Assembly (NCBI GenBank): GCA_963664825.1 | Contig: OY761614.1 | Coordinates: 1,696,001-1,760,000, forward strand | Length of the DNA: 64,000 bases | DNA from: an uncultured Holophaga sp. | GTDB lineage: Bacteria > Acidobacteriota > Holophagae > Holophagales > Holophagaceae | Direction of reading: 5' to 3' | In this document: in pieces, positions 51,976-55,598 of the stretch | Layout: each line of letters begins with the position of its first letter | Numbering within the stretch: the first letter of the stretch is position 1 | The notes under the pieces: model-generated | Seen by the model: only the letters and a program-made list of their open reading frames with translations | Database searches by the model: none | What the model was told of the DNA's origin: nothing | Made by a program: the position numbers and the translations under genes

Positions 51976-52734
51976 GTGAAGCCCTTCTACCGTCTCATCG
52001 CCCGGTCCCGGATCAAGCTGGAGGCCTCTCTGCCGGGATTGCCCCCCTGGGCCAAGCTCCATGGGAAGGCCTGGGCTTGGCTGGATCCGACCCGTCTGAT
52101 CTGCCTGTCGGGCTTGGTCCGGCTGAGTTCCCGGCCACGGCCCTTCTTCACGGAGCTCCACCTCCTGCTGGATCGGGAGGGGGCCATCACCCTCGGAGAT
52201 GTGGTGGACGCCGCCCAGGAACAGACCTTCGGCTTGCTCATCCTGCTCCTGGCGCTGCCGAGCCTCATCCCCGGCCTGAACATCGGCGCGGCGCCCTTGG
52301 GGGGGCTGTTCCTTTTCTGGATCGGCCTCCAGATGGCCGCAGGCCGGTCCAGTCCCGTGCTTCCCCCTCGGTTTCGCCAGCAGGTCATCCACAAGGGGCG
52401 CGTGAAGGAAGGCGTTGCCCGCCTCGAAGGCTATCTGGATCGCCTGGGTTCCAGGAACCGGGTCCATCGCGCTCTCAACCAGCGCTGGATGGGCGTGGTC
52501 GTGGGCTGGACAGCCCTCCTACTGGCCATCCCGGTTCCCCTGCCTTTCGGCAACATCCTGCCGGCCGCCATCCTGGTGCTCTTGGGCGCGGCCCTAGTGG
52601 AGGAACATCCCGCCTGGGGCTGGCTGGGGGCAGGGGCCGCCCTGGGCAACACACTCTATTTTGCCGCCTCCTTCGATCTCATCGTCCTGGCCTGTGCCAA
52701 GGCCTTGGTCGTTCTGAGACACTGGGCGTCCTGA
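51976..52734 (+). CDS. ExoD-family membrane protein
   Basis: ITLGDVVD..FGLLILLLALP, IPVPLPFGNILPA; start uncertain. Confidence 0.75.
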   Translation: MKPFYRLIARSRIKLEASLPGLPPWAKLHGKAWAWLDPTRLICLSGLVRLSSRPRPFFTELHLLLDREGAITLGDVVDAAQEQTFGLLILLLALPSLIPGLNIGAAPLGGLFLFWIGLQMAAGRSSPVLPPRFRQQVIHKGRVKEGVARLEGYLDRLGSRNRVHRALNQRWMGVVVGWTALLLAIPVPLPFGNILPAAILVLLGAALVEEHPAWGWLGAGAALGNTLYFAASFDLIVLACAKALVVLRHWAS

Positions 52735-53537
52735 TGCGCTTCGATGCCCTCACGCTGTTCCCCGAATTCTTCGACACGGCCCGCCTGGGCGTGACGGGCC
52801 GGGCCTTTCGCGAGTTGGGCCACGAGCTGTATACCCATTCGTACCGGCCTTTCGCGGGGAATGCCTCCGGACATGTGGACGATTCCCCCTTTGGCGGCGG
52901 GCCGGGCATGGTGCTGCGTCCCGACGTGCTGCGGGACACCCTGGCCTCCCTTCCCCAGCGGACCCCTCGCCGAGTCATCCACTTCACGCCCGCCGCGCCG
53001 CCCCTCACCCATGCCAAGGTGCTGGATTTGGCCAAGCTCGACCAGGTGATCCTGGTCTGCACCCGCTACGAAGGCCTGGATCAGCGGGCCGTGGAGCTCC
53101 TGGTGGACGAGGAGTTCAGCATCGGAGAGGCCGTGCTATCCGGGGGTGAACTGCCCGCCCTCTTCCTCATCGATGCGGTCTGCCGCTGGCTGCCGGGTGT
53201 GCTCGGCAATGAGGAGAGCGCCGAGCAGGATAGCTTTGCCGCTGGTTTGTTGGACCATCCCCACTACACGCGGCCCGAAGTCTTCGATGGGCTTTCCGTG
53301 CCCGAGATCCTGCGCAGCGGCAATCACGGCCTCATTGCCCACTGGCGTCTGCGGGAGGCCATGGTCCGCACGAAGCGCCTCCGGCCCGATCTCTGGGCGG
53401 CCTTTCTCCGGGACCGGGTCCATGCCCTCTCCCGGCCCGAGCAGTGGTGCGTCTGGCAGGTGGAACATGCCGAGAGCTGGGGCCAGCCTAAGCCCAAGGG
53501 ATGGAAGGGACTTCCGCCTTCGGCGAATTTGACCTAG
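52734..53537 (+). CDS. trmD: tRNA (guanine-N1)-methyltransferase TrmD
   Basis: LTLFPEFF, VDDSPFGGGPGMV, RYEGLDQR, SIGEAVLSGGELPA, LDHPHYTRP, SGNH. Confidence 0.96.
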   Translation: MRFDALTLFPEFFDTARLGVTGRAFRELGHELYTHSYRPFAGNASGHVDDSPFGGGPGMVLRPDVLRDTLASLPQRTPRRVIHFTPAAPPLTHAKVLDLAKLDQVILVCTRYEGLDQRAVELLVDEEFSIGEAVLSGGELPALFLIDAVCRWLPGVLGNEESAEQDSFAAGLLDHPHYTRPEVFDGLSVPEILRSGNHGLIAHWRLREAMVRTKRLRPDLWAAFLRDRVHALSRPEQWCVWQVEHAESWGQPKPKGWKGLPPSANLT

Positions 53538-53546
53538 GATCTTTCC

Positions 53547-53609
53547 ATGCACGTTTCCCTTCCCACTCCCCGCATCCAGGCCCAGGCCTGGTGGTGGCTT
53601 GTCCCCTAG
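53547..53609 (+). CDS. Trp leader peptide 1 (MHVSLPTPRIQAQAWWWLVP)
   Basis: 20-codon ORF with three consecutive TGG at 53589-53597, followed by antiterminator/terminator elements. Confidence 0.8.
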   Translation: MHVSLPTPRIQAQAWWWLVP

Positions 53610-53646
53610 AGGCGGGCCCAGGGCGCATTTTTATGCAGAGATTCCC

Positions 53647-53679
53647 AGGACCCGCTTTCGGCGGGTCCTTTTCGTTTTT
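53647..53679 (+). terminator. Attenuator terminator 1
   Basis: AGGACCCGC-TTTCG-GCGGGTCCT followed by TTTCGTTTTT; competing strand AGGCGGG at 53610-53616. Confidence 0.85.
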
Positions 53680-53693
53680 AAGGAACTGAATCC

Positions 53694-53771
53694 ATGAACC
53701 TTCGCAGCACATTCTCCCTCACCCCCTGGTGGCCCTGGCAGGACCCGCCCGGGTGGATTCCGCGCGCCTGA
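53694..53771 (+). CDS. Trp leader peptide 2 (MNLRSTFSLTPWWPWQDPPGWIPRA)
   Basis: AAGGA RBS; 25 codons with 4 Trp (WWPW..W). Confidence 0.8.
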   Translation: MNLRSTFSLTPWWPWQDPPGWIPRA

Positions 53772-53791
53772 ATTTTCAGGCACAGCCCAGG

Positions 53792-53825
53792 AAGCCCACC
53801 CTTCGCGGTGGGCTTTTCTTTTTTT
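53792..53825 (+). terminator. Attenuator terminator 2
   Basis: AAGCCCACC-CTTCGC-GGTGGGCTT plus long T tract; competing strand GGGTGG at 53751-53756. Confidence 0.85.
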
Positions 53826-53848
53826 CCCCTTTTTTATCAGGAGATCCC

Positions 53849-55093
53849 ATGAACACTTTCACTCACACGGCCTTGGAGCTGGACGTCCTGGACAAGGAGG
53901 GCCGCTTCGGCGAATTCGGAGGCGCCTACGTGCCTCCGGCTCTCGTGCAGCCCCTTCATGAACTGGCCGAGGCCTTCGATGCCGCGGCCCGCAAGGGGGA
54001 CCTGGCCCAGGAACTTTCAAGCCTGCTCCGGGACTATGCCGGGCGTCCCACGCCCCTCACCGAAGTGCCCGCCTATGCCGCGGCCCTGGGAGGGTGCCGG
54101 ATATTCCTCAAGCGGGAGGATCTGCTCCACACGGGCGCCCACAAGCTGAATAACGCCCTGGGCCAGGCCCTCCTGGCCAAGAGTATGGGCAAGGGCCACG
54201 TGGTGGCCGAGACCGGCGCGGGCCAGCATGGGGTGGCCACGGCCACGGCCGCGGCGCGCCTAGGGTTGCGCTGCACCGTATTCATGGGCGCCGTGGACGC
54301 CGCCCGGCAGCGCCTGAATGTCTTTCGCATGAAGATGCTGGGAGCCGACGTGATCGAGGTGCAGGGCGGGAACCGCACCCTGAAGGATGCCGTGGACGAG
54401 GCCATGGGCTACTACGTGGAACACGCTGCCGACACCTTCTACCTGCTGGGCAGCGCCGTGGGGCCCCATCCGTATCCTTCCATCGTGCGGGAGTTCCAGA
54501 AGATCATCAGCCTGGAGAGCCGCGCCCAGATGCTCCAGCAGGTCGGGGCCCTTCCGGAGGCCGTGGTGGCCTGCGTGGGGGGTGGGAGCAATGCCATCGG
54601 CGCCTTCAACGCCTACCTGGGGGACGAGGATGTTCGCCTCGTGGGCATCGAGGCCGGGGGGCGCAGTTTGGACCCAGGCCAGCACGCCGCTCGCTTCGCC
54701 ACGGGGCGCCCCGGGATCCTCCATGGCATGGCGACGGTGATACTCCTGGATGGCCAGGACCAAGTCCAGCCCACCCATAGCATCTCAGCGGGTCTGGACT
54801 ATCCCGGCGTCGGGCCCCAGCATGCTCAGCTCCGGGCCACCGGTCGCGCGGAATACGGATTTGCCACGGATGCGGAGGCGCTCACCGAATTCCACCGCCT
54901 GGCGCGCCTGGAGGGCATCATCCCCGCCCTGGAATCCAGCCATGCCCTGGCGGGGGCTGCCCAGTTGGCCCAGGAGCTGGAGGGTGAAGCCACGATCCTG
55001 GTCAATCTTAGCGGCCGAGGCGACAAGGACGTGGCCCAGGTGTCAGAGATGGAGGGAGAGCCGATGGGAGATCTTAGGGGGCCCTTCTGCTGA
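53849..55093 (+). CDS. trpB: Tryptophan synthase beta chain (stand-alone, no adjacent trpA)
   Basis: GRFGEFGGAYVP, KREDLLHTGAHKLNN (PLP Lys), AETGAGQHG, VGGGSNA, HSISAGLDYPGVGP, NLSGRGDKD. Confidence 0.96.
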   Translation: MNTFTHTALELDVLDKEGRFGEFGGAYVPPALVQPLHELAEAFDAAARKGDLAQELSSLLRDYAGRPTPLTEVPAYAAALGGCRIFLKREDLLHTGAHKLNNALGQALLAKSMGKGHVVAETGAGQHGVATATAAARLGLRCTVFMGAVDAARQRLNVFRMKMLGADVIEVQGGNRTLKDAVDEAMGYYVEHAADTFYLLGSAVGPHPYPSIVREFQKIISLESRAQMLQQVGALPEAVVACVGGGSNAIGAFNAYLGDEDVRLVGIEAGGRSLDPGQHAARFATGRPGILHGMATVILLDGQDQVQPTHSISAGLDYPGVGPQHAQLRATGRAEYGFATDAEALTEFHRLARLEGIIPALESSHALAGAAQLAQELEGEATILVNLSGRGDKDVAQVSEMEGEPMGDLRGPFC

Positions 55094-55123
55094 AGGCCGG
55101 GTGCGCAATTCTGGAATTCCGCC

Positions 55124-55151
55124 TTGTCTTTCAAGGCTCTTGGGCTAGACT
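55124..55151 (+). promoter_or_regulatory. Candidate rplS promoter
   Basis: TTGTCT-N16-TAGACT. Confidence 0.55.
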
Positions 55152-55232
55152 GGTCGTTCCCCCCGTGTGGGGCTTTTCGTGTGCTATGTCCCCGGCGCCA
55201 GCCGTGCAGGACCGCTAGCCCCAGAGGAAACC

Positions 55233-55598
55233 ATGAACATCATCGACAAACTCGAAGCCGGCCTGCTTCGCCACGACCTGCCCCGCCTCTCCCCCGGCGA
55301 CACCGTGAAGGTGCACGTGAAGGTGCGGGAAGGGGAGAAGGAGCGCATCCAGGTCTTCCAGGGTGTGGTCATCTGCATCAAGGGCGGCGGCATCCGCACC
55401 TCCTTCACCGTTCGCAAGATCTCCAACGGTGTGGGCGTGGAGCGCGTCTTCCCCCTCCACAGCCCCTCCATCGACAAGATGGAAGTGGTCCGGAGCGGCA
55501 AGGTCCGTCGTGCCAAGCTCTACTTCCTGCGGGAGAAGCTCGGCAAGAAGGGGCGCCTGAAGGAAGTCCGTCGCGTCGAGGCCCTCGTCGCCGAGTAG
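55233..55598 (+). CDS. rplS: 50S ribosomal protein L19
   Basis: [51 protein letters not shown]. Confidence 0.98.

Follow-up and report, generated by a model that had tools for sequence, protein, structure and literature searches.

Tandem tryptophan leader-peptide attenuators predicted upstream of a stand-alone trpB gene in an uncultured Holophaga genome

The leaky trp attenuator of E. coli is offset by a repressor, and Salmonella his uses more codons and an extra hairpin; in tandem T-boxes, same-signal sensors stand in series, each with its own terminator. Leaders with several peptides have reportedly been predicted in comparative work by the Lyubetsky group. A single E. coli trp attenuator is given a basal read-through of 10-15% (PMC1183508). 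The Salmonella mgtCBR leader carries mgtM and mgtP, two uORF-dependent attenuators acting independently, which respond to different signals (ATP and Pro-tRNA), are additive and work without intrinsic terminators (PMC3641672). In mefA-msrD, two erythromycin-sensing attenuators on one transcript form a 'double-lock' against basal expression; they use drug-induced arrest peptides, and the whole of mefA lies between them (bioRxiv 10.1101/2021.11.29.470318). The ermB region also has two leader peptides, ErmBL and ErmBL2, before one gene, but control is by translational attenuation, antibiotic-dependent and without a terminator pair (PMC8274638). Pseudo-cooperative tandem riboswitches are same-signal sensors in series with their own terminators and give a steeper, more digital response, with the RNA itself as the sensor; the words 'attenuat', 'leader peptide' and 'uORF' occur nowhere in the text of that review (PMC9481103). 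Tandem leaders are not mentioned in the accessible part of PMC1262725.

Two Trp leader/terminator units were found between trmD and a TrpB1-type trpB, with rplS downstream of trpB (Table 1). Positions refer to the window, the whole 64,000-nt stretch of DNA analysed, and the genome is a single contig of 3.47 Mb with 63.7% G+C. As in E. coli trpL and Salmonella hisL, a short uORF with clustered cognate codons, a rival antiterminator and an intrinsic terminator precede a cognate gene (PMC1183508). The locus differs from trpL and hisL in having two complete units, no repressor, a first leader that is probably leaderless and a lone trpB; it scores far below the Rfam gathering threshold, and no conserved 1:2 pause hairpin was seen in it. 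The units are adjacent and would sense aminoacyl-tRNA, in contrast to mefA-msrD, and the sensor would be the translating ribosome, unlike in tandem riboswitches. Because both units carry Trp codons and their own intrinsic terminator, AND-like multiplication is predicted here. A sequence-only reading of the window had proposed two complete Trp leader-peptide attenuators in tandem before one gene, and its uORFs, arms and terminators were located again at the same positions; its start for trpB (53849) agrees with the reading frame and the TIGR00263 match. That reading was not aware of a described serial pair of ribosome-stalling attenuators, but mgtM/mgtP (PMC3641672) and mefAL/msrDL (bioRxiv 10.1101/2021.11.29.470318) are precedents for serial ribosome-dependent attenuators. 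For adjacent leader-peptide attenuators with the same amino acid, each with an intrinsic terminator, no report was found in the open literature, and the open literature likewise yielded no report of attenuation in Holophaga. On balance we favour regarding the tandem leaders as the equivalent, with the ribosome as sensor, of pseudo-cooperative tandem riboswitches; no description of such a class was found.

Table 1. Features of the trpB locus (window positions) and of the His tandem (genome positions)
Feature	Position	Strand	Details
trmD	52734..53537	+	NCBIfam TIGR00088 and PRK00026 above cut-off; upstream neighbour
Predicted -10 box	53535..53540	+	TAGGAT; 6 nt before uORF1 ATG
Leader peptide 1 (uORF1)	53547..53609	+	20 aa, MHVSLPTPRIQAQAWWWLVP*; Trp codons 15-17 at 53589-53597
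Antiterminator 1, 5' arm	53609..53619	+	pairs with 53648-53658; small hairpin 53625-53636 enclosed
Intrinsic terminator 1	53647..53679	+	stem 53647-53669 and U tract
Predicted Shine-Dalgarno of uORF2	53679..53684	+	TAAGGA
Leader peptide 2 (uORF2)	53694..53771	+	25 aa, MNLRSTFSLTPWWPWQDPPGWIPRA*; control codons WWPW at 53727-53738
Antiterminator 2, 5' arm	53751..53761	+	pairs with 53790-53801
Antiterminator 2, inner hairpin	53766..53781	+	from folding; flanks differ among kin
Intrinsic terminator 2	53790..53825	+	stem 53790-53817 and long U tract
trpB	53849..55093	+	stand-alone, TrpB1 type, 414 aa; Shine-Dalgarno 53839-53843; TIGR00263
Predicted rplS promoter	55124..55151	+	TTGTCT-16-TAGACT; inferred from pattern
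rplS (L19)	55233..55598	+	TIGR01024; downstream neighbour
His tandem	G000:C1:2222700-2222370 (locus L242)	-	uORFs VQLASRHHAHHHVAHRVTGEAF and MHILAIHLHHTHPPPPG, each with terminator

A terminator scan of 52800-54300 returned exactly two sites, the two stems listed in Table 1, each with a T-run; 1.1 +/- 0.9 sites were expected from shuffled sequence, so that the count alone is not significant. TrpB scored 562.6 bits against TIGR00263 (cut-off 392.45), which places the downstream gene in the Trp pathway. No Rfam family was matched in the window at gathering level. Both units matched RF00513 (Trp_leader) over the full model, with 17.7 and 17.5 bits (E 0.61 and 0.70), below the gathering threshold of 41 bits, and are therefore not members of that family. 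The best match at E-value level, the RF01772 rnk leader over unit 2 (36.8 bits, below 55), was rejected as a generic rival-hairpin match.

Orthologues were searched for in 61 related genomes, and an orthologous trpB (81-85% identity) was found in six of the eight congeners. Both uORFs and both terminators were present in all six as well as in the window (7/7 loci), so the double Trp uORFs that the sequence-only reading had suggested looking for upstream of trpB in related genomes are kept; the seven carriers belong to one genus and hence are not independent samples. Of 135 trpB loci given to one script, four dropped out because the flank was short or no hit was obtained. Units of a WW/WxW uORF and a terminator stood upstream of trpB in 7 of the remaining 131, namely the seven orthologues with two units each; as many of the remaining 124 are operon-internal trpB genes, the scan serves as a chance control and not as a survey of lone trpB genes. 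In a DNA search of 133 family genomes, the full-length element was confined to the same seven genomes. Short hits occurred in 43 other genomes, and the 23 loci inspected were coding DNA, Shine-Dalgarno regions or plain terminators, with no Trp leader. Scans of metagenome and GTDB contigs gave distant trpB alone (48-62% identity) and added no orthologous leaders; about a dozen more orthologous TrpB proteins are found in metagenomes, their DNA lying outside the contig scans.

In leader 1, W15 and W16 are kept in 7/7 loci and W17 in 5/7, at a constant distance from the ATG in 7/7. In leader 2, WWPW and GWIP are invariant in 7/7, with synonymous third-position changes. The possibility raised earlier, that the control codons might not be conserved, thus falls away for WWPW, and for the first leader it applies to the full WWW but not to WW. 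Variable columns of uORF1 by codon position numbered 7/6/11, with 10 synonymous versus 17 non-synonymous steps, a pattern that gives a weak signal of translation. The fourth Trp codon of leader 2 (53754-53756) falls inside the antiterminator arm, where a stall would close the gate, and it is probably retained for pairing.

Base pairs were counted with the helices anchored by motif, and MAFFT columns were set aside (terminator 1 was misaligned in one row). Locating helices by motif inflates the paired counts, so the base changes matter more. Antiterminator 1 was paired in 42/42 cells and terminator 1 in 63/63 (9 pairs in 7 genomes), with two-sided changes at four pairs of the terminator. In G005, one position is changed in all three strands of unit 1, turning G-C into A-U in both rival helices, and in G003 two G-C pairs of terminator 1 are replaced by A-U. 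For unit 2, the antiterminator helices were paired in 42/42 and 28/28 cells and terminator 2 in 62/63, counted in the same way over 7 genomes. These helices are almost invariant, the single one-sided change (G006) giving G-U in both rival helices, and covariation therefore says little about them. The arms first proposed for both units were correctly placed, but their extent was too short: both helices are longer (Table 1), and that of unit 2 is accompanied by the inner hairpin.

Alternative structures were folded with a ribosome mask extending 9 or 12 nt beyond the A-site codon. In nascent RNA, a ribosome on the first or the second Trp codon gave an antiterminator probability of 0.97-1.00, and a ribosome on the stop codon gave 0.00-0.14, in 14/14 units each; this folding, proposed earlier as a check, thus returned attenuator logic in every unit computed. 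In full-length RNA at equilibrium with a stalled ribosome, the terminator often wins (probability 0.00-1.00, mostly high), so that read-through must be kinetic, the antiterminator forming first. Before its partner is made, the antiterminator arm pairs with upstream sequence at a probability of 0.80-1.00, with partners that differ between genomes; a 1:2 protector helix in each genome is possible from these models.

The motif TA[GC][GC]AT-N6-ATG is present at leader 1 in 7/7 loci. The -10 box overlaps the trmD stop codon in the window genome; it is kept where the end of trmD lies farther upstream (G005 and G006) and likewise in G007 and G008. Across the genome, TAnnnT before 2811 crude first ATGs peaks at a 6-nt gap (82 versus 2-21 at other gaps). 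From the conserved -10 box and the genome-wide peak, we infer a transcription start at or next to 53547, which suggests that the cassette is one leaderless transcript beginning at leader 1. A good -35 box was found in 2/7 loci, with none good in 5/7. Two public runs labelled as RNA gave no coverage of the leader; DNA contigs from runs X7 and X8 extend to it. Further downstream, a TTG-16-TAnACT pattern precedes rplS in all seven cassette loci and in two of five loci without the cassette. With a promoter pattern of its own, rplS need not depend on the attenuators, and the cassette looks as if it was inserted in front of the rplS promoter. As a separate observation, the 6-nt TAnnnT excess before start codons makes leaderless genes look common in this organism, and several trpE leader peptides of the family also seem to begin at the promoter.

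The reading preferred here, to which a probability of about 0.83 is given, is that both units are tRNA-Trp-sensing attenuators acting serially, with read-through being the product of two probabilities. Conservation, the covariation of unit 1 and the masked folding support this reading, as do two absences described below: no -10 box was seen between the units, and no terminator after trmD in relatives without the cassette. The transcript would begin at or next to the uORF1 ATG, and read-through from trmD may also feed in. When Trp-tRNA is scarce, a ribosome would wait at WWW in unit 1 or at WWPW in unit 2 and leave the G-rich arm 12-21 nt downstream free, so that the antiterminator would precede the 3' arm of the terminator and the polymerase would continue. 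When Trp-tRNA is plentiful, the ribosome would cover the arm and the terminator would form. A fresh ribosome at the uORF2 Shine-Dalgarno would repeat the test, trpB being expressed solely if both were passed. Leaks would multiply and the response would steepen ('pseudo-cooperative'): if each unit leaked 10-15% as in E. coli, 1-2% would pass both, and log-sensitivities would add, as in pseudo-cooperative tandem riboswitches (PMC9481103), these figures being borrowed from other systems. The double gate would replace a repressor, which is apparently absent from the genus, and keep an indole-salvage TrpB off while Trp is present.

Several other explanations were weighed against serial sensing. It is unlikely that one unit alone senses Trp, with its partner (most probably unit 2) translated poorly and serving as a partial terminator of fixed strength or surviving as a leftover. 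The Shine-Dalgarno of uORF2, TAAGGA in the window, is a weak GGAA or GGAG in 6/7 loci, the antiterminator probability of unit 2 without a ribosome ranges from 0.00 to 0.99 by genome, and RNA pairing accounts for part of the conservation of uORF2 (GWIP), all of which would fit such a division of roles. The start codon, frame and WWPW of uORF2 are nevertheless kept in 7/7 loci, including G003 with its shifted upstream part, its 16 synonymous versus 9 non-synonymous steps over 7 genomes point to translation, and the doubled layout recurs for His. A TnaC-like arrest peptide, in one leader or both, that senses free tryptophan or indole in the tunnel instead of or besides charged tRNA, with the ribosome parked on the antiterminator arm, is considered very unlikely. 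TnaC has W12, D16 and P24 before the stop, that is, a Trp, an Asp at +4 and a C-terminal Pro. W13 of uORF2 is followed by an Asp 4 residues on and by the stop 13 codons on, a spacing like that of TnaC, and QAQAWW and GWIP are invariant at the peptide level. The Asp is however absent in G003 (1/7), the last residue is Ala and not Pro, so the TnaC-type motif is not present, the Trp codons form a cluster like that of tRNA-sensing leaders, and the trpE leaders of the family have just xAWW in common.

The two remaining explanations appear remote. Terminator 1 might be the end of the trmD transcript, with a separate promoter between the units driving a single attenuator; in 4/7 loci no more than about 30 nt separate the cassette from the end of trmD, which would suit this. 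No TAnnnT box was found between uORF1 and terminator 2 in 7/7 loci, however, so that an intervening promoter, which the sequence-only reading had named as a threat to its proposal, did not appear. In four of five relatives without the cassette, the rplS leader follows trmD directly and no U-tract terminator was seen between them, and in the fifth an unrelated ORF follows trmD. In G007 and G008, trmD and unit 1 are about 0.9 kb apart, with other DNA in between, and unit 1 remains with trpB. As kin show no trmD terminator and unit 1 stays with trpB, terminator 1 is taken as part of the cassette and not as the old end of trmD; nor would a plain terminator keep a Trp uORF together with a rival helix that covaries. 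Just as improbable is structural cross-talk between the units through a repeated 10-mer. The 10-mer is present in the window genome at both places where it had been noted, in terminator 1 and in leader 2, but its exact form occurs in uORF2 of 1/7 genomes, there are 44 copies genome-wide, and terminator 1 has already been passed by the time the second copy is transcribed, so the coordinates of the earlier proposal stand and the cross-talk is not supported.

The trpB of the window is the sole trpB in the genome. No match to TrpA, the TrpE N-domain or TrpF was found in the window genome, nor to the trpE, trpD, trpF and trpA frames of a congener. TrpA was not matched in 5/7 carriers (completeness 83-97%) and is present in G005 and G007. 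TrpR (PF01371) was found in 0/9 genomes of the genus and TRAP (PF02081) in 0/5 genomes, and a tryptophanase-family gene is present in 8/9 genus genomes. TrpB forms Trp from indole and serine. On this gene content, the lack of trpA, trpE, trpD, trpF, TrpR and TRAP matches together with the tryptophanase-family gene, trpB probably serves indole salvage, with attenuation as its sole control, and with this chemistry a leaky trpB beside tryptophanase would be expected to waste serine. As G005 and G007 carry trpA, a salvage-only rationale does not cover all carriers. The best PDB scores of the lyase are 466 bits (tryptophanase) versus 457 bits (tyrosine phenol-lyase), with both equivalog models under the cut-off, and it could be a tyrosine phenol-lyase. 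Separately, a frame beside enolase (G000:C1:1407528-1409066, minus strand) encodes a TrpC (IGPS)-like domain that continues into a long tail of Ala-Lys-Lys-Pro-Val repeats; the tail resembles a histone H1-type protein, and the rest of the trp pathway was not found in the genome.

In 9/9 trpE loci sampled across 8 genera, a single Trp leader with one terminator-like hairpin lies upstream of the gene; single attenuators are therefore the norm in the family, and the mechanism is native to it. Several of these trpE leaders end in xAWWW like leader 1, and leader 2 is reminiscent of the LTAWRWWP type. End-to-end alignment of unit 1 with unit 2 gave a z of 5.7 against shuffles. The mean score between units 1 and 2 was 39 (7x7 pairs) versus 33 and 29 for the trpE leaders, whose between-genus scores range over 17-103; these scores do not tell duplication, or capture of trpE leaders, from shared architecture. 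Most of the trpE leaders (L086, L087, L090-L096) carry (S/P/A)DG or SEG as a motif of their antiterminator arm, and as a group they are apparently an uncatalogued leader family.

A genome-wide scan for uORFs with terminators returned a second tandem outside the window, for His before hisG (Table 1), with uORFs at C1 2222655 and 2222510. Two His uORFs were found in 9/9 long-form hisG loci, five in the genus of the window and four in another genus, and none directly upstream of 37 other hisG loci (operon-internal, short form, 30-36% identity). The U tail of the first hairpin is weak in 4/4 loci of the second genus. By masked folding of the His units (17/18 scored), upstream pairing of the terminator strand was 0.55-1.00 with the ribosome on the first His codons and 0.00-0.45 at the stop. 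Together, the His and Trp tandems show doubling in the same genome for two different amino acids. We judge it somewhat more probable than its contrary that serial doubling is a selected design rule in a repressor-less lineage, in which independent promoter-proximal and Shine-Dalgarno-led gates with leaks of about 10% each would give about 1% and a steeper response, and which would have arisen at least twice in one genome (Trp salvage and His biosynthesis).

If true, serial doubling would be a third remedy for leaky small-range attenuators, beside a repressor and more codons or an extra hairpin, and the doubled layout probably gives tighter shut-off than the single textbook switch. The locus of about 300 nt would be a natural test of attenuator multiplication, for which the single trpE leaders in the genus and the His tandem provide comparisons. 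It also adds a family for which no report was found to those with leader-peptide attenuation, its leader peptides being apparently leaderless, and could be a small part for tight amino-acid-responsive reporters.

Other arrangements were seen around trpB genes of related organisms. No Trp leader was found within 550 nt upstream of the TrpB2-type genes of seven family genomes; three of them follow a TrpR-like gene. In genera g2, g6 and g8 (L185-L187, L194-L198), a TrpR-like gene lies directly upstream of a TrpB2-type gene, a pairing that would be another way to control a lone trpB in the same family. In a second family of the same class (f2; L008-L011, L013, L014, L017), trpB stands behind a single conserved leader ending in ASWVWRS or ASWMWRS, with a TTGACA promoter. 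A strong intrinsic terminator was not found by script in these f2 leaders, and they possibly act by Rho-dependent or translational attenuation.

At the locus itself, a 298-aa frame without NCBIfam match lies directly after trmD, between trmD and the cassette or rplS, in G007 (L088:5701-6597), G008 and G001 and probably in G005. The rplS leader (55152-55232) has a hairpin at 55159-55172 and a GGACCGCT[AG]G block at 55209-55218, conserved in 12/12 loci from four genera; it had no Rfam match at gathering level and is a candidate L19 autoregulatory leader. The 9-mer TTCCGCCTT flanks the trpB cassette at 53512-53520 and 55117-55125, the second copy abutting the rplS -35 box, and the two copies are possibly a trace of cassette insertion.
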